In this document: positions 12,982 through 34,807 of the stretch, in pieces | How positions within the stretch are numbered: position 1 is the stretch's first letter | Layout of the letters: every line of letters starts with the position of its first letter | NCBI GenBank assembly: GCA_963805085.1 | Contig: CAWDTA010000004.1 | Coordinates: forward strand, 1-64,000 | From: an uncultured Veillonellaceae bacterium | GTDB lineage: Bacteria; Bacillota; Negativicutes; JARBTT01 | DNA: 64,000 nucleotides | Reading direction: 5' to 3' | The notes under the pieces: generated by a model | What the model saw: only the letters and a program-made list of their open reading frames with translations | What the model was told of the DNA's origin: nothing | The model's database searches: none | Translations under genes and position numbers: made by a program

Positions 12982-13265
12982 CAGTGATTCCATCTTGTTG
13001 CTTTTTCCTAAGACAGTACCCCCGACACTTCGCCCGCCTCAACCTGCCATCAAAATTTTGACTATTAAACCTATATATTCTCATAAACGCTCAAAACTCC
13101 TGCCAAATTCATACAAATTCCAGCAGGAGTTTCTTTTTTGATCATACTATTGATCGACACGTTACTATTTATCCTTGCACTATTTTGACATTATTTGTTA
13201 TAATGCAAATAGGTGCTACGATAACGGTAGGCGGCTTACCTTCCCCACAGAAATGGGGTGAGCAT

Positions 13266-13337
13266 ATGGGAACTCTGGAGCTTTATGTATTACTAATACT
13301 TGCTACAGGTTACATTATCGCAATAAAAAAGAGATAA
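13266..13337 (+). CDS. Type I toxin peptide, copy 1 (MGTLELYVLLILATGYIIAIKKR)
   Basis: 23-aa hydrophobic peptide with a basic tail; promoter TTGCAC-18-TATAAT at 13175-13204; SD held in a CCCCA/TGGGG hairpin. Confidence 0.8.
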   Translation: MGTLELYVLLILATGYIIAIKKR

Positions 13338-13431
13338 CCGCCCCAATCCTGCAAGATTTAGCGGTTAAACTCTTTTGAATTAATCTCTATATTTTTGTCA
13401 GGTGAACCGTCTATCGGTAGCACCTTTTATA
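13325..13431 (-). ncRNA. Antisense antitoxin RNA, copy 1
   Basis: Minus-strand TTGACA-17-TATGAT promoter (13466-13438) and a TAACCGC..GCGGTTA terminator with a T-tract. Confidence 0.75.
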
Positions 13432-13498
13432 TTGTTTATCATAAACCAAATGTTATACATTGTCAACAGCTGGAAGCAAACGCTTGACAGGCAAAAGT

Positions 13499-13770
13499 GG
13501 CAAGCAGCCCGAGAGATTCTCGCCCTCAGGCTCTCTCAGGGCCGGACTTGAACCTCTCGATTCATCCGGCTCCCATCATCCAACCGTTGGAAAAATTCCA
13601 GACGGTTTTGTTTTGCTCATAGGCTCCTCCCTATCGGTTGACCAGTGTTCAAGACTAGATAACACAGTCCCTTTGCTCCATTCCCATTACGAATTTTCAT
13701 TACTACTACGAACTGTTCCATCCCTATACCCTGCATCTGTACTTTCGTCCTTGCGGGTTCTCCTTTTATA
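13499..13770 (-). mobile_element. Group II intron 3' half with the RT ORF deleted
   Basis: GTTCGTAGTAGTAATGAA..GTAATGGGAATGGAGCAAAGG, then GGGAGGAGCCTATGAGCAAAACAAAACCG (start of the RT ORF) joined to D5 GAGCCGGATGAATCGAGAGGTTCAAGTCCGG and D6. Confidence 0.85.
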
Positions 13771-13997
13771 ACCTGTCCCCATGTAATTCTATTATAGAAT
13801 ATCCAAGATACAGAGATTTTTTCACACACCCTCTGCACCACTAGTTCTTAAGGGGGACTAGGTTACAGCTTGCGTAGTTTTTTATTAGCAGCTGGCATTA
13901 TCATTCTGTTATAGCCGATTGTAATAGGAATAAATTGCGGTCATCGCCTTTGGGTTTATACTATTGGTCAACGTATTAAAATTTATATATCGTTAAA

Positions 13998-15896
13998 TCA
14001 ATAATCAGTATCACTGGTTGATGCAAATGGTATTGTTAAAGCACTTCGAATCATGACTTCAAATGGAGCTGCAGGTGCACCAGTAATGTCTCTAATAAAT
14101 GGTTTAGGTGCATTCTCCCAGTTGTATCTAATTCGTGCACCTCTTGTAATAGTGCATCCAAATGGTAATTCAACACTGATTTCATTTTCATTTACTGTAT
14201 ACGTCAATAATTTTATTGAACGAGTATCATCAATTAATTCAAAGAAACCATTTGCATTGCCAGATAACGTTACTCCAAAAGTCTGGAACTTAATAACTAT
14301 TTGATTTTTCATTTGATATGCATATATTGCTAAAGGCCCATTACAATATCCGTTATGATAGCCATTTATATTTTTAAACGCTTTTGCTAATGCAATCGCA
14401 ACATCTTTTTTCCGTGTTGGATGTAAGTCATCATCTTCGCCCATTTCAAGAGAAACAATCATTGCGGTATCGTTTATCAATAATCCTTTTTTTTGTTCTT
14501 CTCTTAATCGTGCCCAATCATGCTCAGGGTCAATGTCATAATTCGGAAGTTGGACAAAAAGAAATGGAAGGTATGGTTGATTAAATATTTTACGCCATTC
14601 TTGAATCATATTCGTAAATATTGATCCATAATATTCTGGATTTCCAGTGTCGCTTTCACCTTGGTACCATAAAATGCCTGTCAATGGAATTCGTCTAAGA
14701 GGATGTATCATTCCGTTAAATAAACCAATTGGTTTGTATTGAAGAAATAGCTGTGACTTTCTCTCCGGAAGCCAGCTCCCACGCTTAATTGCCCATAAGC
14801 CGAGAGTATCAACATCTAGAATTTCATCTTTGGTAACGATTAAATGCTGCTTGGTTTTTCTGATACCTCCTGGGGAATTATAAATTTTTAAACGGATTAC
14901 CATTTCAAATTCTTTTTTTAGTATTCCCAATGGATAGTTACGTGGTAGATACTGATGATCTGTTGATCCTATTTTTTTACCATTTATAAAAATATCATCA
15001 CTATCAATAAGTGTGCCGAAACGAAGTTCTCCTTCATAACCAACCATTGAATTTGGAATAGTTATTCGTTTTCTCAACCATATTACTCCTGGTGTACAAT
15101 ATTTATTAGGCCATGCTTGATTGAGCTTAACATGATCCCAAGAAGTATCATCAAATTCAGTATGCATCCAACATTCCGAAAGCCCGTCATCAACTTTTTC
15201 ACAATAATTTTGATATTGTTGCTGATAAATAGTATCGTTTTTTTCAATTAATTCAATATAACTATCATTTCTTAAACAATCAAAATTATTCGGCAAAAGA
15301 CCTAAATTTAATAATGTTTCGTGACTAACCCAACTTTTAATAGGTGAGCCACCAACTGCTGTCGACACTAATCCGATTGGTATATGCTTTTCTTTATACT
15401 GCTGTTTTGCAAAAAAATATCCTATACCTGAAAGTGTTTCTAAATCTTTTCCAATAGCGCTTTTCCATTGTCCGCCAGTTAATTCGTTCTGAGGTTTTTT
15501 AAAATCAAATTGTTCTGGAACTTCAAAAAAATGAATTAAAGAATTATCAGCTTGAGTGATTTCGTTTGGATATTCGGCTCTTAATTGGTTCATGCATAAT
15601 TCCATATTAGATTGACCACCCAAAAGCCAAACGTCGCCAAACAAGATATTACGAATCGTTATTTCTTCTTTGGCTGTAAAAATTTTGATGTCAACAGGTC
15701 CGCCTGCTTTATGCGGTGGAAGAGTAAATTCAAAATATCCTGTGATGCATTCTGCCTGTACAGCCAATGTAGTGTTTTCATAAGAAATTTCAACTCGATT
15801 ATTAGGCAGTGCATATCCCCAAAAGCTGATTGGCTTATTTTGCTGCAAAATAGCACCATCGCGTAATAAATATGGAATGAATAATGCTTTTGACAT
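13998..15896 (-). CDS. Sialate O-acetylesterase family (SASA) carbohydrate esterase
   Basis: GDVWLLGGQSNME, GILWYQGESD and DLHP motifs. Confidence 0.88.
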   Translation of the reverse strand: MSKALFIPYLLRDGAILQQNKPISFWGYALPNNRVEISYENTTLAVQAECITGYFEFTLPPHKAGGPVDIKIFTAKEEITIRNILFGDVWLLGGQSNMELCMNQLRAEYPNEITQADNSLIHFFEVPEQFDFKKPQNELTGGQWKSAIGKDLETLSGIGYFFAKQQYKEKHIPIGLVSTAVGGSPIKSWVSHETLLNLGLLPNNFDCLRNDSYIELIEKNDTIYQQQYQNYCEKVDDGLSECWMHTEFDDTSWDHVKLNQAWPNKYCTPGVIWLRKRITIPNSMVGYEGELRFGTLIDSDDIFINGKKIGSTDHQYLPRNYPLGILKKEFEMVIRLKIYNSPGGIRKTKQHLIVTKDEILDVDTLGLWAIKRGSWLPERKSQLFLQYKPIGLFNGMIHPLRRIPLTGILWYQGESDTGNPEYYGSIFTNMIQEWRKIFNQPYLPFLFVQLPNYDIDPEHDWARLREEQKKGLLINDTAMIVSLEMGEDDDLHPTRKKDVAIALAKAFKNINGYHNGYCNGPLAIYAYQMKNQIVIKFQTFGVTLSGNANGFFELIDDTRSIKLLTYTVNENEISVELPFGCTITRGARIRYNWENAPKPFIRDITGAPAAPFEVMIRSALTIPFASTSDTDY

Positions 15897-16040
15897 GATT
15901 ATCTTCTCCTTATTCAAACTTCTTAATATTATTTATTATATTTTATGTATGGCAATATATATTGAATAACCGATCTTTAAATATACCCACATACTAAATT
16001 AGAAAGTCACATTCTATACGATACATATTATTTATTTCAT

Positions 16041-16380
16041 TTATGTAAGTCTGAACAGATACGCATTGGCAGTTTTGCTCGTAATTTTAGATGTCATAAA
16101 CGCATTTGAATTGGATTTGGCATATACCAAATTGAAATATAAGTTTTCAGCTACAGTCGTACCTAATCCGATTGTATAGTAGTCTACGTAGTCACTAGGC
16201 AGTTGATGCTCTAGTACGTTTCCTCCAATACGATAATAGCCCAGTTGCAATTCGGTTGTTTTGCTTAGAGGAGCATCAATTACTAAAGACTGGTTGTTTT
16301 GCGATTGTTACTGTGCTGGTATTGTCATAGGTAGAAGTCGCTTTGCTAGCCTCCAAAGTTGCTTTTACTTTTTTAAATTT
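16041..16380 (-). pseudogene. Possible outer-membrane porin remnant
   Basis: Amphipathic beta-strand pattern (LQLGYY, YYTIGLG, LYFNLVY, AYLFRL) broken by frameshifts. Confidence 0.35.
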
Positions 16381-16428
16381 TTTATAATACTGCGATACGA
16401 AAAATGATAGGTGTTTAATTGCTATTGT

Positions 16429-16586
16429 AAACGTGCTCGGACACATTTATTATACGTTATAATAATACAGATTTTATTCAGCGTCAATAGTCATTTTCAG
16501 ATTTGCGAAAAGATTAAGAAAATTTGTTATTGACAAAAAAATCTAATAATGTTATTTTTATGCTAAGATTGATGTGCTTGAGCACA
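16429..16586. promoter_or_regulatory. Divergent sigma-A promoters with two related palindromic operators
   Basis: Rightward TTGACA-17-TATTTT (16530-16558) and leftward TTGACG-17-TATTAT; operators CGTGCTCGGACACA (16432-16445) and TGTGCTTGAGCACA (16573-16586). Confidence 0.6.
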
Positions 16587-16828
16587 ATTAATGTATGAGG
16601 AGCGTGTGAAAATGTTAATGGTTTAAAAATTTGATAGCTCTGCTATCTGCGAAGGATTCCATTATGGTAATGCAACATGTCTAAAGGTGTTGTTCAATAT
16701 ATTCCAGTATCGTGGAAGAGACAATGCCGTTTCTACACAAATAAAAGTTTATCCTATAAAAGCCTATTTGTATAAGGCAAAAATATAAATTTATTACTGG
16801 TAATTTATATAATTAGGAGGCACAAAGA

Positions 16829-18280
16829 ATGAATGTAGATATTAGAAAAAAGGTTAATGGGCGAACTAAGATTAGTAAATATATTCAAGGACAATTTTCG
16901 GAACATTTGGGTCGCGGAATATATGAAGGTATTTGGGTTGGAAAGCACAGTAAGATTTCAAACACAAATGGGATGCGTAATGATGTTGTTGCTGCATTGA
17001 AAAAAATTAATGTACCAGTGTTGAGATGGCCTGGAGGCAGCTTTGCTGATGAATACCATTGGGAAGATGGTATCGGTCCTAATGATCAGAGACGTAAAAT
17101 TGTTAATCATAGTTGGGGCGGTGTTGTAGAAGATAATTCCTTTGGAACACATGAGTATTTTGAACTTTGCCGACAACTTGGGTGCGATTCTTATGTTAAT
17201 GTAAACCTTGGAAGCGGTACTATACGGGAAATGTCTGATTGGATTGAATATATGACATCTTCAGGCGAATCAACTATGGCACAATTGAGGGCAAAAAATG
17301 GTCATCCGGCTCCTTGGAAAGTTAAATTTTTAGGTATGGGCAATGAAGCATGGCTCGGTGGTGGAAGCATGCGGCCTGAATATTATGCTGATGTTTACCG
17401 TAGATTTCAAACATATATTCCAGAATACAATGGCCCAATTTATAAAATAGCTAGCGGACCAAGTGTCGATGATTATCATTGGACAGATATTGTTATGAAA
17501 AATACAAGAGGATATTTAAATGGATTAAGTCTGCACCATTATGCCATGACAGATGTTTGGGAAAAGAAAGGCGAAGCGGTTGATTTTCAAAAGGATGAAT
17601 GGGGACGCATGTTATACAATGCACGCAGGATGGATGATTTAATTGCAAACCATTTGACGCATATGGGTCAGTATGATCCGAATCATACGACTGACTTGAT
17701 TGTAGATGAATGGGGAACATGGTTAAAGGCTGAAAAAGGGACTAATCCAGCTTTTTTATATCAACAAAATACAATTAGAGATGCAATTGTAGCTGCAACA
17801 ACACTCAATATTTTTAGCAAGTATGCTGAGCATATAAAAATGACTAATATAGCACAAATGGTTAACGTATTGCAGGCAATGATTATTACATATGAGGATC
17901 AAATGGTTTTAACTCCAACTTATTATGTTTTTGATATGTATAAATATCATCAAGATGCAATATTGGTTGATGCATTTAGTAATAATGGAGAGGATATAAA
18001 TTACACTATCTCAATGAAAAATAACGAATATATCATTTCTGTTTGCAATACTAGTATAGTTGAGGAACATAATATAACAATAACATTTGGGAACAGTATT
18101 CAAAGTCCAACATATTCAAAATGGATTCATAGTAATATTATGAATAAACATAATACATTTGATAATCCAAATAATATTTTTGAAGAAGATTTTAATCATT
18201 TTACAGTTAAGGATACCGAATTATTTATTCGTAGTGATAAAATGAGTGTGATCACTATAAAAATACCAATTACTGCATAG
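16829..18280 (+). CDS. abfA: GH51 alpha-L-arabinofuranosidase
   Basis: GQFSEHLGRGIYEG, LRWPGGSFAD, GNE and VDEWGTW motifs. Confidence 0.92.
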   Translation: MNVDIRKKVNGRTKISKYIQGQFSEHLGRGIYEGIWVGKHSKISNTNGMRNDVVAALKKINVPVLRWPGGSFADEYHWEDGIGPNDQRRKIVNHSWGGVVEDNSFGTHEYFELCRQLGCDSYVNVNLGSGTIREMSDWIEYMTSSGESTMAQLRAKNGHPAPWKVKFLGMGNEAWLGGGSMRPEYYADVYRRFQTYIPEYNGPIYKIASGPSVDDYHWTDIVMKNTRGYLNGLSLHHYAMTDVWEKKGEAVDFQKDEWGRMLYNARRMDDLIANHLTHMGQYDPNHTTDLIVDEWGTWLKAEKGTNPAFLYQQNTIRDAIVAATTLNIFSKYAEHIKMTNIAQMVNVLQAMIITYEDQMVLTPTYYVFDMYKYHQDAILVDAFSNNGEDINYTISMKNNEYIISVCNTSIVEEHNITITFGNSIQSPTYSKWIHSNIMNKHNTFDNPNNIFEEDFNHFTVKDTELFIRSDKMSVITIKIPITA

Positions 18281-18340
18281 GCAATAATGGCATTGCTGGA
18301 TGGATATGATGTTTTTTTGATAATATTGGGAGGAATAAAA

Positions 18341-19732: not shown

Positions 19733-19741
19733 GTTATAAAA

Positions 19742-19775: not shown

Positions 19776-19829
19776 AAAATTGGAGGAACTTATTTGTGGA
19801 ATATCAAATAACATATACGAACCCAATTA

Positions 19830-20101
19830 TACAGGGGCTCTATCCAGATCCGTCCATTTGTTTTGTTGGTAAATATTTCTACCTTGCGGGTTGCTTCCAA
19901 GTTTATTCGTCTCCATTGGCACTTACCTGATGAAATCTCGTTCCACCTTTTCCCGTAACGCTCACTACCATGGCTTTTGACCACAACAACTTACGGTGGT
20001 TTGAAGCCTCCACCTGTATGGCGACTTCGGAGGGCCTTCTTCCATATTTAGTTAAGCATAGGGTGTGGACGCTAAAACATTCACACTCTTTCGTGGCACA
20101 C
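19830..20101 (-). mobile_element. Group II intron 5' part (domain I)
   Basis: Begins GTGTGCCACGAAAG and contains GGCCCTCCGAAG..CTTCAAACCACCG..GGTCAAAAGC..GTAGTGAGCGTTACGG..AAAGGTGGAACGAGATTTC, which I recall from bacterial class D/E-like introns. Confidence 0.8.
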
Positions 20102-20850: not shown

Positions 20851-20968
20851 GTCAATTTTTTCCACCCATCAAGGGATGGAACTTATCGATCAGCTAATAG
20901 CTATGCCTTTTTGCTCGTAATATTGACAATTGAATTTTCGAGACTCTCTCTCCTAGGTTTGATTCCCT

Positions 20969-21155
20969 GCTTTATGTATTACTAATACTTGCTACAGGTT
21001 ACATTATCGCAATAAAAAAAGGGATAACCGCCCAGTCCTGCAAGATTTAGCGGTTAAACTCTTTTGATTTAATCTCTATATTTTTGTCAGGTGAGCCGTC
21101 TATCGGTAGCAGCTTTTATATTGTTTATCACAAATCAAATGCTATACATTGTCAG
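20969..21155 (+). pseudogene. Type I TA module copy 2, 5'-truncated
   Basis: Matches copy 1 from codon 6 onward. No toxin promoter, SD or start; antitoxin promoter degenerate (CTGACA/TGTGAT). Confidence 0.8.
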
Positions 21156-21177
21156 CAACTGGAAACAATCGCTTGAC

Positions 21178-21203
21178 AGACAAAAGTACTCGCCCCTTTG
21201 TAT
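21178..21203 (+). repeat. REP-like site
   Basis: AGACAAAAGTACTCGCCCCTTTGTAT. Confidence 0.65.
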
Positions 21204-21442
21204 ATATATCCATCATCGTTGTGGGAATATCTAATATTTTAAGTCTAACTCTTTCATTTTTAAAGTACGCTAATTCTACAATATCCATAAATTCTCATTT
21301 GTGCTTTTAGTACAGAACATTCTTACTGGTATTGCCCCTACTATAGAAATCCCCTACTCCTAATCTAGTACTATCACTTTTGGGGGTTAGCATATTTTAC
21401 TTCTTTACTTGAGGTTTCCATTTAATAAAATTCAAAAAAATA

Positions 21443-23099: not shown

Positions 23100-23275
23100 A
23101 TTATGCGTTACTTCGTCTACATATTGTAATGTTTTGTCGAATACGTAGAAATATATCCACAACCAGAAAAAATTGCGCAAGACAGTATAATCCGTTAAAA
23201 TATAGTTTAGGCTCTATTGTCTAAAGCAGAAAAGCAGACTATGTGCTTCTGCAAATCCATGAGAGGGTGGTTTTT

Positions 23276-24121
23276 ATGATCCAGGATATTGGACCAAAAA
23301 TATTCAATAATAATTTTAAAAATCAAAAAGCCAAGGTATCTGATGTTTTCCTTTCATATGAGGGAGATACAGTTCTAATAAAAGAAGATAAAGACAAGCT
23401 ATGGTACCCGTCTTTTGCCGATTTTCAAGAGAAATATCCTTCGCTTATAGAGAAAGCACAGTTTCTTTTCACCATCAATGAAATTAATTACTATCTGGCA
23501 GACGAACAGGGTCTTGATTCCGTGGAGGGCTGGATTTATGTAAATGTCCGCCGCTTCCGTTCAGAACCAAAATATTGGCGTTCCTTTGCCGGTGCTGTCG
23601 GCTGGCAGCTAAACCGCTGGTATTCGGATCATAGATTTTGCAGCAAATGCAGGAATCCCTTGAAAAAATCCGATAAAGAGCGCATGCTCTATTGTGAAAG
23701 CTGCAGCTTTCAGATCTACCCCAAAATTTCACCAGCGGTCATTGTCGGTGTATATGACAAAAACCGTCTCCTTTTAACAAAATATGCCGGAAGAGAACAC
23801 GTTCGTCATGCACTGATTGCCGGTTTTGCGGAAATCGGAGAAAGCCTCGAACAAACAGTTCATCGTGAAGTACTAGAAGAAGCCGGATTGAAAGTAAAAA
23901 ACCTGAAATTTTACAAAAGCCAGCCGTGGCCGTTTACCGATACGCTCCTTGCCGGATTTTATGCCGAGCTCGACGGCGATGATGCCATCACAATGGAAAC
24001 CGATGAGCTTTCGCTAGCCATCTGGGTGGAACGGGAAAATATTCCAGTAGAAGATGAACTGCAAATGAGTCTGACCAGCGAAATGATATCCGCCTTCAAA
24101 AAAAATGAATTTAATTTATAG
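23276..24121 (+). CDS. nudC: NAD(+) diphosphatase, copy 1
   Basis: Zinc ribbon, Nudix box GESLEQTVHREVLEEAG and SQPWPF. Confidence 0.92.
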   Translation: MIQDIGPKIFNNNFKNQKAKVSDVFLSYEGDTVLIKEDKDKLWYPSFADFQEKYPSLIEKAQFLFTINEINYYLADEQGLDSVEGWIYVNVRRFRSEPKYWRSFAGAVGWQLNRWYSDHRFCSKCRNPLKKSDKERMLYCESCSFQIYPKISPAVIVGVYDKNRLLLTKYAGREHVRHALIAGFAEIGESLEQTVHREVLEEAGLKVKNLKFYKSQPWPFTDTLLAGFYAELDGDDAITMETDELSLAIWVERENIPVEDELQMSLTSEMISAFKKNEFNL

Positions 24122-24165
24122 GGACACGGGGACATGTTGCAGTAGCAGTGCAGGGTACTTGTCAC
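24121..24165 (-). repeat. REP-like site abutting the nudC copy 1 stop codon
   Basis: Reverse strand ends CAACATGTCCCCGTGTCCC; homology with nudC copy 2 ends here. Confidence 0.55.
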
Positions 24166-24198
24166 ATGAAAATACCTAAAATTTTACCGCCTCAAGTT

Positions 24199-25638
24199 TG
24201 ATCTGACCCCAAAAAGTTAGACAAAAAATGAATTATGCAACTAATGAGGATTGAATCCTGTATCGCACAGGGCTCAGTCCTTTTAGTTTGCTCTTAATTC
24301 GTTTATTGTTGTAGTAGTCTATATATTTTTCTAGTTCAACTTTAAATTCCTCTATAGAGCTAAACTTTCGCAAGTATAAAAGTTCTGACTTAAGTAGCCC
24401 AAAGAAATTTTCCATAATTGAATTGTCTAAGCAGTTTCCTTTTCGAGACATACTTTGGATTATTCCTTTATCTCTGAGCCTTTTTTTGATAATGTTTGTG
24501 CTGATATTGCCATCCTTGATCAGAATGAAATATAAGATTTGTATCAGTTGGAATCTTTGCAAAAGCTTTATCTAACATATCCATCACTTGCCCTAATATA
24601 GGTCTTTCGCTAATGTTATAACTTATAATTTCACTATTATACATATCCAATATCGGCGATAAATATAATTTAGTGCCAAACAACGAAAACTCCGTTACAT
24701 CTGTTGTCCATTTCTGATTTGGTGCATCAGCTTTAAAATTTCTCTGAATAAGGTTCGGGGCAATTTTCCCTGTTTCACCCTTGTAAGAACGATATTTTTT
24801 GACTCTTACCATACATTTAATTTTCAATGCGTTCATTAAACGTTGTACTGTCTTATGATTGATTTTATGGCCTATATTCGTTAATTCCATTATAATTCTA
24901 CGATATCCATATCTACCTTGATTTTCATGATAAATGGCTATAATTTAATCTTTGATTGTTTTATATTTATCAGGTTCATTCGATTTTTTCAAATAATAAT
25001 AGTATGTGCTGCGTGGTATCTTAACTAGCTCTAATAATGCTGTCAGTTTATATTTCTGCCTTAATTTGGTTATGACAGCTACTTTATCGGCTTCTCCGAT
25101 TTTTCCCGCTTTTGAATTAAGGCATTCAATTTTTTTAGGTATTCATTCTCCATACGAAGTCTCTGGACTTCTAATAAAAGCTCTTCATTATTTTCGATGT
25201 TCTTACGTTCTTTTTTAATTCCCATTTTACTTGACCTTCCTCTGCGTTCTTCATACAGAGCAGCCTTGCCTTTTTCGTAATAAATACGCTCCCATGTGCT
25301 TATAGATGGATGAGATGGAATATTAAAATGTGCAGCAGTCTGGCGAATTGATGCTCCTGTATTATGCATATATTCTACGACAGAAACTTTAAAATCGCCA
25401 GTATAAGTTCTATGAGTTGTACAAAGACCATCAATACCATGTTCTTTGTAAGCTCCTACCCATTTTTGAATATCACTTTTATGTACATGATACTCATTAG
25501 AAAGTGAATTGAATCCAATATCACCTTTTAGATAGTGTTGTACTATTTTCATCTTTAATTCTGTAGTATATATTTTCTTTGGCATAAAAATACCCCTTTC
25601 ATTAGACTTTTTTTGTCTAACAAAAGGGGTTCACTTCA
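24199..25638 (-). mobile_element. IS3-family (IS150-like) element with inactivated orfB
   Basis: Ends TGATCTGACCCC.. and ..GGGGTTCACTTCA; orfA 25079-25585; orfB ([21 protein letters not shown]) is broken by a stop near 24945 and a frameshift in the T-run near 24481. No target duplication seen. Confidence 0.92.
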
Positions 25639-25781: not shown

Positions 25782-26845
25782 ATGGGCCTAGATCACACTT
25801 TGGATGAGCAAGAGCCCCAACATCAGCGACGTATTCGCTATAAAGGCACTCACCCTAAGAATTTTAAAGAAAAATACAAGGAACTGCACCCAGAGCAATA
25901 TGCTGATGATGTAGTAAAGATTATTCAGAAAGGCAATACCCCTGCCGGTATGCATATTTCAATTTGCGTTAAAGAAATATTGAAATTCCTGCAAATCACA
26001 CCAGGACAAACCGGATTAGATGCAACACTAGGCTATGGCGGTCATACTTTAGAGATGCTCAAATGTTTAGATTCAAAAGGGCACTTGTATGCAATTGATG
26101 TAGATCCTATTGAATTGCCGCGCACCAAAGCTCGTTTAGAGCGTTTGGGTTATGGCCCCGAAATCTTAGAAATCAAGCAGATGAACTTTTCCCAAATAGA
26201 TCAAGTTGCTTCCGAACCAGGGTCATTCAATTTTGTATTGGCAGATTTGGGCGTTTCTTCTATGCAAATAGACAATCCTGAAAGAGGCTTTTCCTTTAAG
26301 GCAGAAGGGCTGTTGGACTTACGGCTTAACCCCAAAAGGGGGAATCTGCAGCAAGTCGTTTAAAAGAGATGACATTAGATGAATTACAGGATATGTTGAT
26401 AGAAAATGCTGACGAGCCTCATTCTCGACCAATCGCTCGCGCCATTATTTCCAACATAAAAAAAGGAATTGATATATCAACAACAACACAACTCCGAAAT
26501 ATCATCAAAGATGCTCTGAAATCGATTCCACAAATTACTGAAGATGAGATTAAAAAATCTTGTCAACGATCCTTTCAAGCGTTGCGAATTGATATCAATA
26601 ATGAGTTTGAAGTGTTAGATGAATTTTTAGAAAAACTTCCTGATGTCCTTGCTAAGGGTGGACGCGTTGCCATACTTTCATTTCATTCAGGAGAAGATCG
26701 TCGCGTTAAAAAATCTTTTAAACACTTTTTTCGTGAAGGCGTTTATCGTGAAATAGCACCCGATCCTATTCGTCCATCAGCAGAAGAATGTCATGTCAAC
26801 AGTCGTGCACGTTCTGCTAAATTACGTTGGGCAATCAAAGCATAA
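25782..26845 (+). pseudogene. RsmH/MraW-like methyltransferase paralogue, frameshifted
   Basis: DATLGYGGH and DLGVSSMQID in one ORF, FQALRI and SFHSGEDR in the next; the shift lies at CCCCAAAAGGGGG (about 26330-26342). Confidence 0.85.
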
Positions 26846-27102
26846 GGTGTAATTTTCGGCACTACATCTACCTTTAAAGACCAGATTTCAGCTTTTCTTT
26901 ATTATTTTTTTAGAAAGGCATGAACCATCGCGTTTCGCATAGGTTCATGCCTTTTTTACAGCTAAAGTTGGTACGATTCTCCCCAATTGATCTTAAGCGA
27001 ACACGTGTCTTTTACGGACATACCTATTAATTGCAAATATAGCCATCAGGCTTGTCTTATGTGAATTTAACACGTAGGTGTCTCAATTCACTGCCTACGT
27101 AT

Positions 27103-27327
27103 AAAAGCGACGAATACCTAAGTACTCGTCGCTTTTATTTATTTGTAATGCTATTTTACTTCAACCACGTTTCATTATAAACATCAATCGCTGCTTGATG
27201 TTTACCCATGATTTTTTGTGCAGTTTTTAAGCTTTGCTCTACTTGTTTGTAGGAAGTACCACCAAAGAAATTACGATTTTCTACGCAGGTTTCTGCTTTG
27301 ATTGCTTCTAAGATATCGGCTTCAAAT
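27103..27327 (-). pseudogene. argH: Diverged copy of the argH 3' end plus terminator
   Basis: [44 protein letters not shown] matches the ArgH C-terminus; AAAAGCGACGA..TCGTCGCTTTT hairpin. Confidence 0.9.
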
Positions 27328-27381
27328 AGTGCTACGATAACGGTAGGCGGTTTACCTTCCCCACAGAAATGGTGTGAACAT

Positions 27382-27453
27382 ATGGGAACTATGGAGCTTT
27401 ATGTATTACTAATACTTGCTACAGGTTACATTATCGCAATAAAAAAGAGATAA
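27382..27453 (+). CDS. Type I toxin peptide, copy 3 (promoterless)
   Basis: MGTMELYVLLILATGYIIAIKKR; SD altered to GGTGTG; antitoxin promoter intact at 27555-27583. Confidence 0.7.
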   Translation: MGTMELYVLLILATGYIIAIKKR

Positions 27454-27605
27454 CCGCCCCAATCCTCTCCAAGATTTAGCGGTTAAACTCTTTTGATTAA
27501 TCTCTATATTTTTGTCAGGTGAACCGTCTATCGGTAGTACCTTTTATACTATTTATCATAAATCAAATGTTATACATTGTCAACAATTAGGAGTAAACGC
27601 TTGGC

Positions 27606-27631
27606 AGACAAAAGTACGCATCACTTTGTCT
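27606..27631 (+). repeat. REP-like site
   Basis: AGACAAAAGTACGCATCACTTTGTCT. Confidence 0.8.
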
Positions 27632-27645
27632 ATTTTGATGAAAAA

Positions 27646-28405: not shown

Positions 28406-28509
28406 TCCCCATCTCCCAACTTCTATTTATGCTCTAAGTGTCATTTGTTAAAAATTTACAAAAATTATATTTACTTATAACCTGAAATGGAATTTTTAAT
28501 ATTAAAACT

Positions 28510-28862
28510 TTACTCAAATAAAGTTCCTATTTTCCCCCATAAAATATTATCTAGATCAATATCTTCTAAAGTATTAAGAGTGTTGAAAATAGGCGTACCT
28601 CTAATGCATGCACCTATAAATATGAATTTGCCACATGCTTTGCATTTAAAATAATGACAAACGGTGTAGTGTAACTCACTCCCCAGATGATCCAATACAT
28701 CTTCTATTGGACAGTCACCTGCAAAAAGTTCAATACGCTTTTGACTTTCCATCTCCTTCAACATCATTAATAGTGGCATATAGTTATAATGTGGTTCATT
28801 TTTTGTGGTTCATTTTTTGCTGCCGTAAATACGGATTTTATAAAATCGCAAGTTTTACACAC
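28510..28862 (-). pseudogene. Cys-rich hypothetical protein frameshifted by a 14-bp tandem duplication
   Basis: GTGGTTCATTTTTT occurs twice at 28791-28818. Removing one unit gives a 112-aa ORF starting MCKTCDF. Confidence 0.65.
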
Positions 28863-29007
28863 TATTTTTACTCACCTTCTAATATAACTTATTAAAGCAC
28901 GAACATAGATAATGCAAGCATTATCTCCATTTGCTTTCTCTGTACTTCCTTACTAGATTATTAAATGCCATTTTATATTGATTGGGTCTCTCGACCAATT
29001 ATGAATT

Positions 29008-29478
29008 TTATTCTTGACACTCTTCCTTCGAATTATTTTTATCTGGCATCATACCCATCACTAGAATTACCATTAACAGATCAGGGTTAACTATAACTTT
29101 AAAAAATCCATTAAAAATCCAAAATAGCATCATAACTATCATAAAAAATTTAGAATGTATCATACACCGACATCGTTGTATGATACTACTAATTGCTAAA
29201 CTTTCATAAAAAATTATCAATATGGCTCCCAGATTTCTCATTGAATCATAAACTAAAATATTATGATTTTCGAATACTTTGGAAAATACAATAATTAAAT
29301 ATACTATTATATCTAGAAGTAAACATATCATCCAGCGCCAAAAGAATTTTTTTCTTGTAATCTTCTGACTCACATCAATCCAAGAAACATGTAATTTTAT
29401 TCCCAAATAAAGGATTAAAATCACTGTACCATATACTATTAATTTGCTATTTATATCACTTATAGATATCTCTATCAT
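29008..29478 (-). CDS. Membrane protein, possibly DUF805-like
   Basis: ITRKKFFWRW followed by several TM segments; GGAGG RBS. Confidence 0.6.
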   Translation of the reverse strand: MIEISISDINSKLIVYGTVILILYLGIKLHVSWIDVSQKITRKKFFWRWMICLLLDIIVYLIIVFSKVFENHNILVYDSMRNLGAILIIFYESLAISSIIQRCRCMIHSKFFMIVMMLFWIFNGFFKVIVNPDLLMVILVMGMMPDKNNSKEECQE

Positions 29479-29555
29479 ATCTTTACCTCCTGAAAGAGAA
29501 CAAAATCGTTTCTCAATCTTTATAATCCGTTACCAGCTATTCTATAGGGTTGATT

Positions 29556-30335
29556 TTACTTTTTCGATTCTTTCAATGCAACTAATACTTTATGCATGTC
29601 ATTTAAATCATCAACAGTTAAGTTTTGAAAGTCTTTTAATTTAGATATTGCTTGATCAATAGTTTCATTTTTATAGCTGGACTTTTCATTGCTACTAATG
29701 AAAAAAGTTGAAATTGCGCCAGTAAGCGTACTTAAAAAGCCAATCCCAATTAGCATTAAAACAGCAGCTATCATTCTGCCTCCAAAAGATTGAGGGGCAA
29801 TATCACCATAGCCAACTGTTGTGGTTGTTACAAATGACAGCCATAGTGCATCGCCGATTTCCATATCATCAATATAAGAAATTGCGAGAGCACCTAAGAA
29901 TATTACAGAAAAAGTGAACCATAATATGTGGTGAAAATTATTCGTAGTCAGTATTCGACTTATACGATTATAAACTCGATTTAAATAGATAAACCCTCGT
30001 ATCATATAGGCAAGTTTAGCTAAACGAATCGCACGGAAACATTGAAAAGTATCAAAAGGAATAATTGCAATAAGGTCAATGATATTGTGTTGAATGAAAT
30101 GCATTCGATTCTCTGCTACTATAAGTCTAGCGAAGTAATCAATAACAAAAAACACCCATACACTAAAATCAACTTCATTTAAAATACTAGCTTCTGGCTC
30201 GGAAAAGTCTACTTTGCTTTGCATAACAAACGATATGACGTATCCAATAGATAAAACAGACATAAAAATATCGTAATATATTTTATATTTAGCAAAGTTG
30301 ATTTCGAAATTACGTAGAGTTTGCCTAACGATCAT
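29556..30335 (-). CDS. Potassium channel family protein
   Basis: TTVGYGD selectivity filter and S4-like RAIRLAK. Confidence 0.9.
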   Translation of the reverse strand: MIVRQTLRNFEINFAKYKIYYDIFMSVLSIGYVISFVMQSKVDFSEPEASILNEVDFSVWVFFVIDYFARLIVAENRMHFIQHNIIDLIAIIPFDTFQCFRAIRLAKLAYMIRGFIYLNRVYNRISRILTTNNFHHILWFTFSVIFLGALAISYIDDMEIGDALWLSFVTTTTVGYGDIAPQSFGGRMIAAVLMLIGIGFLSTLTGAISTFFISSNEKSSYKNETIDQAISKLKDFQNLTVDDLNDMHKVLVALKESKK

Positions 30336-30611
30336 ATCTGGTACAACTCCTAGAAAAAAGATATTATTTTTAATAATACTCTAGTTTGCATGTCTTATGT
30401 TGTAAGATTTTGTCGAATATGTAAAAATAGAAAGATGTCCCTTATGAATAATTTGGGTTTCAGCATGTTTTTCTCCATTCCTTGTCGAAATAAAACAAAT
30501 ACACCTATAAACCAATCATTTTTCCCAGGCAATAAGCAAAAGTAATTGGTTTTATGAGAAATAGGCATTTGCTTTATACGTACAATCGTTCTATTCTAAG
30601 ATAAAGGAGTA

Positions 30612-31961
30612 GTGATCATGACCAAGACTGACGAACATATTTTTCAGGACCCTTACGCTAAAATCGGCTATAAGCTTCACCTGCTTTTACATACAGGACA
30701 GCTTCTCATGGAAAGCGGTGCCGATACTAACCGTATTGCTCGCGACATGATGCGGGCAGCTGCCTTTATGGGCATTCCGGAAGAAAAGATCCATATGCAT
30801 ATTATGTATACAACACTGATGCTCAATATCAGTGATGACGACCATTCGTATACAAGTTTTCGCAAATGTCGGCATCACGGCATAAATATGACGGTAATCT
30901 CCGCCATCAGCAAGCTGTCTTGGCGGGCAATGGAAGAAAAATATTCCCTGCAAATGTACGAGGCTGAGCTAGAGCGTATTCAAAATCTCGAACATCACCG
31001 CCATTATTCGTTTTATCTATCCGCTATTGCTGCAGGGCTAGCATGTGGAGGTTTTTGCAAGCTGTTTAGCAGTGACTGGATTGCTTTTTTCTGGACAGCG
31101 CTTTGCGCATCTCTCGCCTTTGCGGTTCGCCACTTTTGCAATAAAATGGAGATTAATCCCTATGCAGGGATATCTATTTCTGCATTTACAGCAACAATGT
31201 TGGCGTATTTTACCCATTTTTTCTCTGGGTCTGCAACGCCCTGGCATCCACTGATTGCCTGCACATTATTTATCGTTCCGGGCATTCCGCTAATCAATGC
31301 CATTGATGATTTGTTAAACAATTATATTGTTTCCGGCAGTACAAGAGCAATTAATACCCTTTTAATCGTCGGCGGTATGACCTTCGGCATCGTTCTGGCG
31401 ATACGGCTTGGCAACGTTCCTGATTTTTTTACTTCTCTAAATATAGCCCCGCACAGTATTTACTTATCCGATGCGATTGCCGCTGCCATCGCCTCTGTCG
31501 GTTTCTCCATTATATTCAATGTACCGCCCCGGCTTCTTGCTGCAACCGCAGTTGGCGGTATAATCTCGATCGGTCTGCGAAATTTTTGCGTCATCGATCT
31601 CGGCATGACACAAGAAATTGGCGCCTTTGTCGGCGCAACAGCCGTCAGCCTGCTCGCACTTAAAGCGGTGCACTGGTTTCATACGCCGGTCCATGTCATT
31701 ACAATTCCATCGGTCATTCCCATGATCCCCGGAGTGCTTCTTTATCGGCTTCTATTTGCAGTTCTTAATATAAAAGCTCTGGATGCGGCTGCGCTTATGG
31801 CAGGGATACAAAACGGGGTAGAAGCTATTTTAATTATTATCAGCATTACAGTAGGTGCAACCATCCCCAAAATTTTTGCCCGCCGCTATATTGAAAAAAA
31901 TAAACAATTACATCTGGAAGAATTGCTGGCTAAGCGTTCAGAATCAGAAACAGCCCATTAA
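30612..31961 (+). CDS. ThrE-family threonine/serine exporter
   Basis: GQLLMESGADTNRI, VPGIPLINAIDDL and PMIPG motifs. Confidence 0.9.
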   Translation: MIMTKTDEHIFQDPYAKIGYKLHLLLHTGQLLMESGADTNRIARDMMRAAAFMGIPEEKIHMHIMYTTLMLNISDDDHSYTSFRKCRHHGINMTVISAISKLSWRAMEEKYSLQMYEAELERIQNLEHHRHYSFYLSAIAAGLACGGFCKLFSSDWIAFFWTALCASLAFAVRHFCNKMEINPYAGISISAFTATMLAYFTHFFSGSATPWHPLIACTLFIVPGIPLINAIDDLLNNYIVSGSTRAINTLLIVGGMTFGIVLAIRLGNVPDFFTSLNIAPHSIYLSDAIAAAIASVGFSIIFNVPPRLLAATAVGGIISIGLRNFCVIDLGMTQEIGAFVGATAVSLLALKAVHWFHTPVHVITIPSVIPMIPGVLLYRLLFAVLNIKALDAAALMAGIQNGVEAILIIISITVGATIPKIFARRYIEKNKQLHLEELLAKRSESETAH

Positions 31962-32157
31962 ATACAAAACAACTACATAGCCACATACAAAAAACAGCGT
32001 CTTCTCAAAATAAAAGAAGGCGCTGTTTCAATCAATATCCACAACCAAAAAAAATTGTACAAAACAGTATAATCCGTTAAAATATAGTTTAGGTTCTATT
32101 GATTACAGCAGAAAAACAGACTATGTGCTTCTGCAAATCCATGAGAGGGTGATTTTT

Positions 32158-33003
32158 ATGATCCAGGATATCGGGCCAAAAATATTCAATAATAATTTTA
32201 AGCATCAAAAAGCCAAAGTATCTGATGTTTTCCTTTCATATCAGGGAGATACAGTTCTAATAAAAGAAGATAAAGACAAGCTGTGGTACCCGTCTTTTGC
32301 CGATTTTCAAGAAAAGTATCCTTCGCTTATAGAGAAAGCACAGTTTCTTTTCACCATCAATGAAATTAATTACTATCTGGCAGATGAACAGGGTCTTGAT
32401 TCCGTGGAAGGCTGGATCTATGTAAATGTCCGCCGCTTCCGTTCAGAACCAAAATATTGGCGTTCCTTTGCCGGTGCTGTCGGCTGGCAACTAAACCGCT
32501 GGTATGCAGATCATAAATTTTGCAGCAAATGCAAGAATCCTTTGAAAAAATCCGATAAAGAGCGCATGCTCTATTGTGACAGCTGCAATCTTCAGATCTA
32601 CCCTAAAATTTCACCAGCAGTCATTGTCGGTGTCTATGATAAAAGCCGTCTCCTTTTAACAAAATATGCTGGAAGAGAACACGTTCGTCATGCACTGATT
32701 GCCGGTTTTGCGGAAATCGGAGAAAGCCTCGAACAAACAGTTCATCGTGAAGTACTGGAAGAAGCCGGGCTGAAAGTAAAAAAACTGAAATTTTACAAAA
32801 GCCAACCGTGGCCGTTTACAGATACTCTCCTTGCCGGATTTTATGCCGAGCTCGACGGCGATGATGCTATCACACTGGAAACCGATGAGCTTGCACTGGG
32901 CATCTGGGTAGAGCGGGAAAACATTCCAATAGAAGACGAACTGCAAATGAGTCTGACCAGCGAAATGATATCCGCCTTCAAAAAAAATGAATTTAATTTA
33001 TAG
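32158..33003 (+). CDS. nudC: NAD(+) diphosphatase, copy 2
   Basis: Same length as copy 1 and differs at only a small number of residues. Confidence 0.92.
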   Translation: MIQDIGPKIFNNNFKHQKAKVSDVFLSYQGDTVLIKEDKDKLWYPSFADFQEKYPSLIEKAQFLFTINEINYYLADEQGLDSVEGWIYVNVRRFRSEPKYWRSFAGAVGWQLNRWYADHKFCSKCKNPLKKSDKERMLYCDSCNLQIYPKISPAVIVGVYDKSRLLLTKYAGREHVRHALIAGFAEIGESLEQTVHREVLEEAGLKVKKLKFYKSQPWPFTDTLLAGFYAELDGDDAITLETDELALGIWVERENIPIEDELQMSLTSEMISAFKKNEFNL

Positions 33004-33015
33004 GGTTCTTAATAC

Positions 33016-33297
33016 AAAAGCGACGACTCCTTTCGGAATCGTCGCTTTTATTATTATTTGACTTCTACAACTTTTTCATTATAAGCATCAATCACTGCTT
33101 GATGTTTATCCATGATTTTCTCAGCAGTTTTTAAGTTTTGTTCTACTTGTTTGTAGGATGTCCCACCAAATGAATTGCGGTTTTCTACGCAGGTTTCGGC
33201 TTTGATTACTTCTAGGATATCGGCTTCAAATAATGGTGAGAATTGTTTAAATTCCTCTAGGGATAAATCCATCATCCATTTATTGTTTTCAATGCAA
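33016..33297 (-). pseudogene. argH: Second diverged copy of the argH 3' end plus terminator
   Basis: Matches 34770-35051 with scattered substitutions. Confidence 0.92.
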
Positions 33298-33299
33298 CA

Positions 33300-33454
33300 G
33301 GTACAAGGGGACAGGTTATTTGTCCCACACTCATTTTTTGATCATCAGAAGTTTTGAATATTCCCTATTCTCTTTATAACATTGAAATAACTCTAACTTA
33401 TAACCTAAATAAATTCCGTTTTACAGGGGATAGGAAACCTGTCCCCTTATTCCC
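33300..33454. repeat. Inverted pair of REP-like sites
   Basis: GGTACAAGGGGACAGGTTATTTGTCCCAC (33300-33328, reverse) and GGGATAGGAAACCTGTCCCCTTATTCCC (33427-33454). Confidence 0.7.
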
Positions 33455-33666
33455 AACTATCTAACTAGGATTTTTACTAATCTTTTTATTTCTAAATTAC
33501 GGATAAGCAATACCTATTTAACATTATAAACTTATTTCTCAAAAATACACAAAACTCCTACCAAACCAACAAAGCACAGCAAAAACAAACAAATTTATCC
33601 AATATTTAAGAAGGAAATATTATAGAAAGGCAGAATATGGTATATATTGTGATTGGAGGTAATTAA

Positions 33667-34332
33667 ATGAATATAGTTGAAATGAATTTTGAACTGGTCA
33701 AAGAACTCGAAAACTCTTTAAAAACCGCTATCCGCTATAATAATGGAGATATGATGTATAAGATAGTTACACGTTACCTTGATAAGTATAAAGATCATTA
33801 TAGTTATGATACTATAATACACTACATATATTGGTGTACAAAATTTAAAATAACTACTTTAAATCGCATTTTGGGTTATACTGGAGATAATCGTACATAC
33901 TTAATAGATCAAGGGCTGATTGAAAAACAAATTTATAAAAGCAAATGTAATATATGTGGAAAAAATCAAAAAATTGAGGTTAGTAGCAGAAGAGAATTAG
34001 GGGACTTAAAAAGGAATCCTAAAACTTATATATGTAACGAGTGTGAATTAGACATAGATGCATGCAGTAATTTTTACTATGAATATTCAAAAAACAAAAA
34101 TTTGAAAAGAAAAGAAATTAACGAAAACTTTTACAATGATTATCTGAGAAGTGAGCATTGGAAAAAAGTTCGGTCTGAGGCATTAACTGCCTCAGACAAT
34201 AAATGTCTATTATGTTCATCCAAGCAAGATCTTAATGTGCATCATAAAACTCATGCTACTATAAGAAAAGAATCTTTAAATGATTTAATAGTACTTTGTG
34301 ATACATGCCATCGTAAACATCATTTTGGGTGA
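33667..34332 (+). CDS. HNH endonuclease domain protein
   Basis: YLRSEHWKKVR..CLLC..LNVHH..LIVLCDTCHRKHH. Confidence 0.85.
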   Translation: MNIVEMNFELVKELENSLKTAIRYNNGDMMYKIVTRYLDKYKDHYSYDTIIHYIYWCTKFKITTLNRILGYTGDNRTYLIDQGLIEKQIYKSKCNICGKNQKIEVSSRRELGDLKRNPKTYICNECELDIDACSNFYYEYSKNKNLKRKEINENFYNDYLRSEHWKKVRSEALTASDNKCLLCSSKQDLNVHHKTHATIRKESLNDLIVLCDTCHRKHHFG

Positions 34333-34507
34333 AAACATCCAAATTGGGTAGCCCAGACAATTTTGTGTAAATTGAGTTTCCTTTTTAATCAAATAGTGCC
34401 ACATTACTATTTATCCTTGCAATATTTTGACATTATTTGTTATAATGCAAATAGGTGCTACGATAACGGCAGGCGGTTCACCTTCCCCACTGAAATGGGG
34501 TGAGCAT

Positions 34508-34579
34508 ATGGGAACTATGGAGCTTTATGTATTACTAATACTAGCTACAGGTTACATTATCGCAATAAAAAAAAGATAA
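34508..34579 (+). CDS. Type I toxin peptide, copy 4
   Basis: MGTMELYVLLILATGYIIAIKKR; promoter TTGCAA-18-TATAAT at 34417-34446. Confidence 0.8.
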   Translation: MGTMELYVLLILATGYIIAIKKR

Positions 34580-34671
34580 CCGCCCCATCCAGCAAGATTA
34601 GCGGTTAAACTCTTTTGATTTAATCTCTATATTTTTGTCAGGTGAACCGTCTATCGGTAGCACCTTTTATA
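34567..34671 (-). ncRNA. Antisense antitoxin RNA, copy 4
   Basis: Minus-strand TTGACA-17-TATGAT (34706-34678) and the terminator hairpin. Confidence 0.75.
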
Positions 34672-34807
34672 TTGTTTATCATAAACCAAATGTTATACAT
34701 TGTCAACAGCTGGGAGCAACACTTTCAGGCTATTTCTTAGAATACAAAGAGTAGAAAAAATCTTATAACAAAAGCGACGACTCCTTTCGGAATCGTCGCT
34801 CTTTTTA

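Follow-up and report, generated by a model that had tools for sequence, protein, structure and literature searches.

A probable bsrG/SR4-like type I toxin–antitoxin module repeated in the genome of an uncultured Veillonellaceae bacterium

The system closest to the module described here is bsrG/SR4, a toxin–antitoxin pair of type I from Bacillus subtilis whose toxin mRNA has been structurally probed. As described in PMC3834814, nucleotides (nt) 1–35 and 232–262 of the bsrG mRNA form the helix P1, the Shine–Dalgarno (SD) sequence is held in a 4 bp G-C helix of stem–loop SL1, and the stop codon lies in SL3. The terminator loop of the antitoxin RNA SR4 is reported to contact the SL3 loop first and then to invade the 3′ arm of P1, and this invasion frees the 5′ nucleotides of bsrG and promotes cleavage by RNase III (PMC3834814). 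The lengths given for type I toxins are 28–60 amino acids (aa) in Bacillus subtilis and 34–59 aa in Clostridioides difficile (PMC6563280). In this study, we analysed a module that is repeated in a 64 000 nt stretch of DNA from an uncultured Veillonellaceae bacterium of the class Negativicutes (GenBank assembly GCA_963805085.1, contig CAWDTA010000004.1, positions 1–64 000 of the forward strand; hereafter the window). Each intact module is very probably a type I toxin–antitoxin cassette that works like bsrG/SR4. The bsrG/SR4-like build of the cassette is known, whereas its peptide was found in no database searched.

Alignment and self-BLAST identified four copies of the module (approximately 340 bp, pairwise identity 88–93%), all on the forward strand, and a profile search with nhmmer recovered 4/4 copies and zero other places in the 64 kb. 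The limits of homology by self-BLAST are 13127–13498 for copy 1 (intact), 20969–21205 for copy 2 (a frameshifted remnant), 27323–27633 for copy 3 (toxin promoter lost, open reading frame (ORF) kept) and 34374–34719 for copy 4 (intact). A sequence-only reading of the window had placed four type I modules at these sites, where all three methods locate them. Its coordinates stand, with the qualification that homology reaches slightly further on, but the four copies are not equally intact, given the remnant state of copy 2 and the promoterless state of copy 3.

Every element of the module is present in copies 1 and 4 alone. The toxin promoter of copy 1 (13175–13204) combines a −35 element TTGCAC (13175–13180), an 18 nt spacer and an extended −10 element TGtTATAAT; it scores 9/12 with the TG, and its −10 hexamer (13199–13204) ends 7 nt before the 5′ arm of P1. 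This arm (13211–13241), the predicted 5′ end of the toxin mRNA, pairs in the minimum free energy (MFE) structure with the 3′ arm (13400–13425), which is followed by TTTT and is defined by folds, duplex and covariation; the duplex of the two arms has a z-score of −6.4. Next to the 5′ arm, the SL1 hairpin (CCCCA/TGGGG, 13243–13258) sequesters the SD sequence GGGGTGAG at 13255–13262. The toxin ORF (13266–13337) consists of 23 codons plus TAA, as do the ORFs at 27382–27453 (copy 3) and 34508–34579 (copy 4), and all three encode MGT(L/M)ELYVLLILATGYIIAIKKR, a peptide with an acidic N-terminus, a 17-residue hydrophobic core, a C-terminal KKR and one predicted transmembrane (TM) helix. The folds place the stop codon in a hairpin (13328–13376, SL3 of the sense RNA), the complement of which, with a T-run, forms the antisense terminator. 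On the reverse strand, the antisense promoter TTGACA-17-TATGAT (13438–13466, 11/12 in the promoter scan) would produce an antitoxin RNA of about 105–110 nt (13322–13431), both ends of which are predicted. The predicted antisense fold contains a 5′ hairpin and a terminator hairpin followed by the T-run (−32.7 kcal/mol, z −4.5). In copy 4, the corresponding parts are a toxin promoter TTGCAA-18-TATAAT with an upstream TG (34417–34446), the 5′ arm (34453–34483), SL1 (34485–34500), the ORF (34508–34579) and the 3′ arm (34640–34665), all on the forward strand, and the same TTGACA-17-TATGAT antisense promoter on the reverse strand (34706–34678). The ORF is in place in copies 1, 3 and 4, the SD hairpin and the convergent promoter are present, and the two mRNA ends pair in the fold, all as the sequence-only reading had proposed; the antisense RNA of about 105 nt ending in a terminator is borne out at the level of prediction.

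Relatives of the module were collected from other genomes. A genome collection was scanned with the patterns TGYIIAIK and MGT[ML]ELYVL, by which part of the peptide is fixed; 61 stretches matched, and 14 of these were confirmed by tblastn and gave the 13 loci (numbered with the prefix L) on which the counts for other genomes are based. Two loci belong to Negativicutes, namely the metagenome-assembled genomes (MAGs) of a Massilibacillus (91% peptide identity) and a Schwartzia (61%). The other 11 belong to Oscillospirales-type Clostridia: Butyricicoccus, Anaerotruncus colihominis, Ligaoa zhengdingensis and uncultured members (Ruminococcaceae, Oscillospiraceae, Acutalibacteraceae, Eubacteriales and two Clostridium sp. 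MAGs). In all 13 loci, we found a free-standing ORF of 23–24 aa with an ATG and an SD sequence at normal spacing, so that the ORF is kept among homologues; its N-terminal half is hydrophobic and varied, and its end reads ATGYIIAIKK, one further residue and the stop codon. The complete series of promoter, 5′ arm, SD hairpin, ORF, stop-codon hairpin, 3′ arm and convergent promoter was likewise present in 13/13. By nhmmer, the loci contain 19 modules, including tandem pairs in L004, L007 and L012 and an array of four in L013. The nearest relative is the module of the Massilibacillus MAG. Compared with the closest locus, L001, the window has the module alone in common (84–86% identity), and the flanks are unrelated.

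The RNA structure of the module is under selection. The full sense RNA of copy 1 folds at −65.7 kcal/mol (z −4.4) and that of copy 4 at −68.8 kcal/mol (z −4.0), each closed by the 5′/3′ helix, and in both cases 0/200 shuffled sequences were as good. Among 23 modules in total, 20 were folded (left out were copy 2, a contig-truncated module of L004 and the module of L006, which has an insertion of about 60 nt), and the long-range closing helix P1 was present in the MFE structure of all 20. The duplex of the P1 arms gave z-scores of −5.0 to −7.4 in 16 of the 17 modules compared, the exception being L013b (z −2.0), which has a deletion in the 3′ arm. When each 5′ arm was set against all 17 3′ arms, the cognate arm ranked first or second in 14/17 modules; the remaining ranks were 3 (W3, a window module), 6 (L001) and 9 (L013b). 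Over the outer 12 nt, cognate arms make 9–12 of 12 pairs (mean 10.1, 14 modules), while non-cognate arms taken across lineages make a mean of 4.9 pairs (174 comparisons, of which 2.9% reach 9). The 5′ 12-mers themselves share just 3.6/12 identities between ten lineages.

Next to these pairwise comparisons, a consensus structure was obtained with RNAalifold from a MAFFT alignment of 16 modules. It consists of 25 pairs in three helices, namely the P1 core, the SD hairpin and the stop-codon hairpin, and 92% of its cells are paired, compared with 32–52% in slid controls. Compensatory changes were detected in 13 of the 25 pairs, a number reached by 0/500 shuffles, and for four of five consensus-structure measures none of the 500 shuffles reached the observed value. 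In helix 2 (the SD hairpin), 89% of cells are paired, and in helix 3 (the stop-codon hairpin), 4/7 pairs show compensatory changes. Folding and covariation across copies, which the sequence-only reading had named as a check, therefore support its proposed pairing, with P1 in 20/20 folds and 13/25 pairs compensatory. Several pairs of P1 are conserved G-U pairs. As these would be A-C mismatches on the opposite strand, P1 belongs to the sense RNA, which must then include the 3′ arm. We also observed three related segments in copy 1 (13211–13241, 13335–13344 and 13400–13413): for the core of the 5′ arm, GGCGGYTTA, both the 3′ arm TGAACCGTC and the sequence directly behind the stop codon (TAACCGCC) are possible partners, and the consensus of the Rfam BsrG family draws the 5′ arm as paired with the post-stop sequence. 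This dual pairing may represent an alternative or co-transcriptional fold. The insertion in the module of L006 (L006:2873-3166) is G+C-rich and lies between the 5′ arm and the SD hairpin, and both L006 and L007 (L007:2925-2947) carry an extra small hairpin between the promoter and P1, which starts 26–27 nt after the −10 element there.

The ORF evolves as a coding sequence, with changes mainly at third codon positions. The differences at codon positions 1, 2 and 3 numbered 4, 1 and 11 between L003 and L009, 3, 1 and 10 between L011 and L013d, and 1, 2 and 6 between W4 and L001. The same excess was observed for the N-terminal codons, which are unconstrained by the search pattern (4, 1 and 9 for L003/L009; 2, 1 and 5 for L011/L013d). 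These results bear on the view that the module is a pair of convergent non-coding RNAs whose short ORF is not translated. In its favour, RNA structure is the most strongly supported feature of the module, the T-run of the antisense terminator coincides with the final codons, and the ORF is shorter than the usual limits of gene calling; an exact look-up in a collection of approximately 15 billion proteins found 0/10 peptides (the window peptide and relatives). A non-coding pair would leave unexplained the ATG, the SD sequence at canonical spacing and the stop codon at the same place in every full module examined, as well as the retention of hydrophobic character while N-terminal residues vary and the third-position excess, which extends outside the pattern-fixed stretch. 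Moreover, in L013 the same slot holds a different, equally TM-like ORF. Taken together, we regard an untranslated ORF as highly improbable.

The promoters of the two predicted RNAs differ in strength. Over 22 modules, the antisense promoter scored 12/12 in 11, 11/12 in nine, 10/12 in one and 9/12 in one (copy 2). The toxin promoter has a poor −35 element and a total score of 7–11/12, with the extended −10 TG in 14/21 modules, and its −10 element ends 7–9 nt before the first paired base of P1 in 15/21. Such an asymmetry, with a strong promoter for the antitoxin and a weak one for the toxin, is what is expected of type I systems. The antitoxins RatA, SR5 and SR6 are reported to outnumber the RNAs that they target (PMC6562991).

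The sequence features of the module, their conservation, the covariation of its helices and the coding signature of its ORF are established in silico. On this basis, we infer the transcripts with their ends, a kissing contact at SL3, cleavage by RNase III, the relative stabilities of the two RNAs and the toxicity of the peptide to the membrane, which would act together as follows. Transcription from the weak extended −10 promoter would yield a sense RNA some 215 nt long, whose first ~31 nt would pair with its last ~26 nt as P1 and so bury both ends; atop P1 would stand the G-C hairpin holding the SD sequence, the 23-codon ORF and the stop-codon hairpin. From the near-consensus convergent promoter just past P1, an antisense RNA of about 105 nt would be made, the exact complement of the P1 3′ arm and the stop-codon hairpin, with the complement of the hairpin serving as its own terminator. 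By analogy with SR4, the loop of the antisense terminator would kiss the loop of the stop-codon hairpin, the duplex would spread over the 3′ arm and P1 would open, RNase III would cut the duplex of about 105 bp, and the toxin mRNA would be destroyed as long as the antitoxin is in excess. If the antitoxin disappears, the sense RNA, which is structured and presumably long-lived, would be translated, and the peptide would insert into the membrane and damage it.

A link to the families defined for Bacillus was provided by locus L013 (L013:1955-3144). This tandem array of four modules contains three with a 26 aa Hol_Tox-like ORF and one with an ATGYIIAIKK ORF. Between modules a and d of the array, the 5′ untranslated region is 94.7% and the 3′ untranslated region 93.2% identical, compared with 58.6% for the ORF, which looks like the exchange of an ORF inside a conserved RNA scaffold. 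The sibling ORFs encode MVTYEALFSFCLVVIGIIALFQGKKK or a variant of it. The peptide MVTYEALFSFCLVVIGIIALFQGKKK, present in two of the three siblings, scored 22.5 bits against Pfam Hol_Tox PF16935 (E 1.1e-4, cut-off 23.3), and the variant in the third sibling gave no Pfam match; in the Hol_Tox search of relatives, one of 11 peptides matched, which was this sibling without the ATGYIIAIKK end. Against Rfam BsrG RF01412, two siblings scored 39.6 bits (E 1.3e-7) and the third reached 25.3 bits (E 0.0011), so that none attained the gathering score of 55, and an ATGYIIAIKK module of L007 gave a weak match along the entire BsrG model (21.7 bits; E 0.005 for a search of 651 nt). These observations suggest that the window module works like bsrG/SR4 and shares the ancestry of its scaffold, while standing outside the defined families RF01412 and PF16935. 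Some members of the TxpA family, to which Hol_Tox PF16935 corresponds in the sense of Fozo et al. (2010), are annotated as holin-like, and TxpA-like sequences are reported from Clostridiales (PMC2887945). Bacillus loci of the bsrG/SR4 type that carry BsrE/H instead of BsrG have been described (PMC6562991), which is the same kind of ORF exchange as in L013.

Of the four window copies, only the first and the fourth have the look of working toxin genes. Copy 3 starts at the position of the transcription start, and in the place of the toxin promoter lies a 3′ fragment of argH (27100–27331) that is 84% identical to 34770–34989 by self-BLAST. Comparison with the duplicated unit 32035–34719 suggests that the toxin promoter of copy 3 was removed by a deletion of approximately 1.2 kb. 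The copy has two substitutions in the SD hairpin, its ORF (27382–27453) is intact and its antisense promoter (27583–27555) is intact at 11/12; it is probably an antitoxin-only copy. Copy 2 begins inside the ORF at codon 6 and is without promoter, 5′ untranslated region and the first five codons; a 1 nt insertion abolishes its stop codon, and its antisense promoter has decayed to CTGACA-17-TGTGAT (9/12). Cross-repression between copies is plausible, as the predicted antisense regions of the four copies are 89–96% identical to one another.

Several results weigh against the assignment to a bsrG/SR4-like toxin–antitoxin system. The two transcripts, including where they start and stop, are predictions. 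Within copies 1 and 4, the scan for terminators flagged nothing, and no separate terminator of the toxin mRNA was found after P1 in either copy, where there is just the T-run. Termination of the sense RNA at the stop-codon hairpin, ahead of the 3′ arm, is also conceivable, although the sense-strand specificity of P1 covariation argues against it. No match of the window modules to Rfam BsrG was obtained at the gathering score or at E-values up to 10, Rfam searches gave no family for them, and hhalign gave no signal between the ATGYIIAIKK alignment and the Hol_Tox-like siblings. In W1 and W4 alone, constrained folding predicted that the SD helix would be extended in the manner of SR4 when the antitoxin binds (probability unpaired from 0.43 to 0.33), and this extension was dropped as a feature of the family. 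For the peptide, the identity of TGYIIAIK across loci is imposed by the search pattern, and the final lysine codons (…IKK) double as the T-run of the antisense terminator, so that a constraint on the RNA may account for some of the conservation of the peptide.

The window peptide found no match in Pfam, NCBIfam, PHROGs or PADLOC, which also counts against the assignment and agrees with the sequence-only reading, by which it could be assigned to no named family; 0/3 window peptides matched Hol_Tox PF16935. A weak match to the NCBIfam srtB_target family (E 0.073) was set aside as an artefact of the hydrophobic stretch. BLASTN of the module gave no match to plasmids and a single irrelevant match of 33 nt to phages (E 0.007); tblastn found no match for the window peptide in plasmids and phages or for the L013 sibling peptide in plasmids. 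Text searches for the peptide motif found no paper, an earlier listing being possible in T1TAdb or in the supplements of surveys (PMC2887945, PMC8594479), and literature searches on toxin–antitoxin systems of type I from Negativicutes yielded nothing on the subject, as judged by titles and the starts of abstracts.

A further point against toxicity is YhzE-2, a candidate type I peptide with an antisense RNA that is reported to be non-toxic when overproduced and in its own host (PMC2887945). By this precedent, the product could be a small peptide of the membrane that serves the physiology of the cell without being toxic, for example by regulating a membrane complex or as one of its subunits; its level would be tuned by the cis-antisense RNA, and it would cause no addiction. 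The shortness of the peptide, its 17-residue hydrophobic core and the absence of a matching toxin family are compatible with such a role. So is the position of the modules elsewhere, which lie mostly among housekeeping genes (thrS, rplQ-rpoA-rpsD, the atp operon, pnp and argG-argH) rather than mobile elements. Nevertheless, a hairpin-locked SD sequence and a weak sense promoter facing a near-consensus antisense promoter form a layout for a product that is kept off. Tandem amplification in several genomes, retention of the antisense promoter in the decayed and promoterless copies of the window, and interchange with a Hol_Tox-like ORF within one scaffold in L013 are all typical of toxin genes. 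We therefore consider a non-toxic role unlikely and retain the toxin–antitoxin cassette as the preferred interpretation: the ORF, promoters and helices recur in 13/13 loci, the helices covary and the ORF behaves as coding sequence, in keeping with the unannotated type I module put forward by the sequence-only reading.

The four copies lie between a DNA-repair cluster (ada/alkA/ogt-like, 9741–11474) and the arg operon (from 34808). The region between contains accessory genes, an element of the insertion sequence (IS) family IS3, a split rsmH, fragments of group II introns, a duplicated NUDIX gene and two extra 3′ fragments of argH, and these features indicate that it has been rearranged; the GC content of the 13–35 kb region is not unusual and bears no mark of foreign origin. 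The NUDIX gene belongs to a segmental duplication (23153–24123 and 32035–33005, 94% over 971 bp), and the 3′ end of argH with its terminator occurs in three copies (27100–27331, 33007–33300 and 34761–35054). Module copies 3 and 4 are parts of these NUDIX/argH duplicated units. The IS3-family transposase is in three ORF pieces (24233–25585, reverse strand) and the rsmH (MraW) methyltransferase gene is split into two ORFs (25782–26845, forward strand); both are probably pseudogenes. It is possible that the modules stabilize this variable region, as the sequence-only reading proposed by comparison with the cassettes of superintegrons, but this proposal found no support here, and most modules of other genomes stand between housekeeping genes.

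In such a setting, the module might be a miniature mobile element resembling miniature inverted-repeat transposable elements (MITEs) or repetitive extragenic palindromic (REP) sequences, with inverted repeats that resemble an RNA helix and with an incidental ORF and promoters. Several copies, some truncated, do lie within one 22 kb region; the unit is framed by the inverted repeat, which extends as far as the −10 boxes of both promoters; and the region also contains the IS3 element, intron fragments and duplicated segments. However, the arms covary with pairing kept, including G-U pairs possible on one strand, where ends bound by a transposase would conserve their sequence. The ORF keeps its third-position excess and its length of 23–24 aa over class-level distances, copies in other genomes are single or in tandem and none is dispersed, and conserved sequence extends past the inverted repeat on both sides. 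The downstream flank of copy 1 (13467–13498, forward strand) contains a 20 nt motif formerly called REP-like, which occurs at 13479, 21168 and 27596 only (three matches in the window, 0 expected). This motif is a module flank and no dispersed repeat in the window; being confined to three of the copies, it does not support the REP-like site suggested by the sequence-only reading. An origin of the module as a mobile element therefore has very little probability, and the toxin–antitoxin cassette remains our interpretation of the repeats.

Additional observations were made around the modules. The copy positions 13158, 20969, 27322 and 34400 are regular, with spacings of 7689, 6428 and 7123 bp. A match to group II intron domains V/VI on the reverse strand (13491–13574; 37.7 bits against a threshold of 40) starts at the end of the copy 1 flank, a D1–D4 piece lies at 19925–20043 (reverse strand, 108 bits), and another group II intron 3′ end stands at the start of the window (1–75, reverse strand). 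No reverse-transcriptase ORF was found between the pieces at 13491–13574 and 19925–20043, the interval holding a sugar-utilization cluster instead. Truncation of copy 2 by the end of a group II intron was considered and dropped, given that D1–D4 lies at 19925–20043 and that the sequence at 20968 does not look like an intron 5′ end. In other genomes, both Anaerotruncus loci (L010:2901-4469 and L011:2901-4084, the second from Anaerotruncus colihominis DSM 17241) carry a gene for a glycoside hydrolase family 25 (GH25) muramidase approximately 200–550 nt after the module, which could be part of a prophage lysis region. In an uncultured Eubacteriales (L007:872-3502), two tandem modules are located just downstream of argG-argH, and copy 4 of the window (34374–36232) likewise abuts the 3′ end of argH; this adjacency may be a coincidence or a common insertion preference.

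The module closes a gap in annotation: its peptides are absent from a collection of some 15 billion proteins, yet it recurs in gut and environmental anaerobes of two classes. It also extends the bsrG/SR4 design beyond Bacilli and adds natural covariation in support of helix P1, and the ORF swap in L013 supports the idea, raised for Bacillus in PMC6562991, of toxin exchange within a conserved RNA scaffold. At about 250 bp between promoters (292 bp with them, 13175–13466), the module is very compact, and it is therefore well suited as a model for the control of toxin expression by RNA and may serve as a component of RNA devices. For the window, the four-fold repeat is explained and the copies that are probably alive are indicated. 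More speculatively, and with considerable doubt, the P1–SL1–SL3 RNA with its convergent antitoxin might be an ancient portable scaffold of Bacilli, Clostridia and the diderm Negativicutes, into which unrelated toxin ORFs would be swapped, as in L013. In that case, the ATGYIIAIKK peptide would represent a new minimal toxin, its 23–24 aa falling below the lengths given for Bacillus subtilis and Clostridioides difficile, and the window, with two modules alive, a third copy reduced to its antitoxin and a remnant, would record a cycle of addiction and anti-addiction that shaped the plastic region of 22 kb.

Finally, we compared the module with known type I systems, for which the sequence-only reading had named hok, aapA and txpA. 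The TxpA/BsrG group proved to be an apt comparator, with bsrG/SR4 as the closest system; hok and aapA, in which the antisense RNA acts at the 5′ side, are not the closest. The hok/sok and aapA/IsoA systems resemble the module in the 5′/3′ interaction that closes the full-length mRNA, in the sequestered SD sequence and in the small TM toxin. They differ in that the mRNA fully overlaps the antisense RNA, which is located 5′ of the ORF in hok/sok and over the ORF in aapA/IsoA, and both are proteobacterial, unlike the module. The sole convergent promoter of the module is on its 3′ side, at variance with the 5′-leader antisense of hok/sok, and no mok-like leader frame was seen.

The bsrE/SR5, bsrH/as-bsrH and txpA/RatA systems (including Enterococcus EF3263) have toxins annotated as holin-like (Hol_Tox) and are known mainly from prophages and the skin element of Bacilli and from Lactobacillales. 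Their toxins are 29–59 aa long, compared with 23 aa for the module, and the window peptide has no Hol_Tox match. They resemble the module in that each toxin is a small peptide with a single helix and a basic C-terminus, and in that the 3′ part is covered over about 100–140 bp by the antitoxin, which promotes RNase III-dependent decay, as is also proposed for the module.

Compared with bsrG/SR4, the module is smaller (about 215 nt for the sense RNA, about 105 nt for the antisense RNA and 23 aa for the peptide, against 294 nt, 180 nt and 38 aa in PMC6562991). No counterpart of the SL4 terminator that directly follows P1 in bsrG was found in the module, in which the antisense promoter abuts P1, and the folds do not predict for the module family as a whole that the SD helix is extended when the antitoxin binds. 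Its peptide has no detectable similarity to the bsrG family, and its hosts are Negativicutes and Oscillospirales-type Clostridia rather than Bacilli. In spite of these differences, the window module contains the same parts as bsrG/SR4 in the same order, with P1, SL1 holding the SD sequence and SL3 holding the stop codon, and in both systems a convergent cis-antisense RNA, predicted in the case of the module, covers SL3 and the 3′ arm of P1 and has the complement of SL3 as its terminator.

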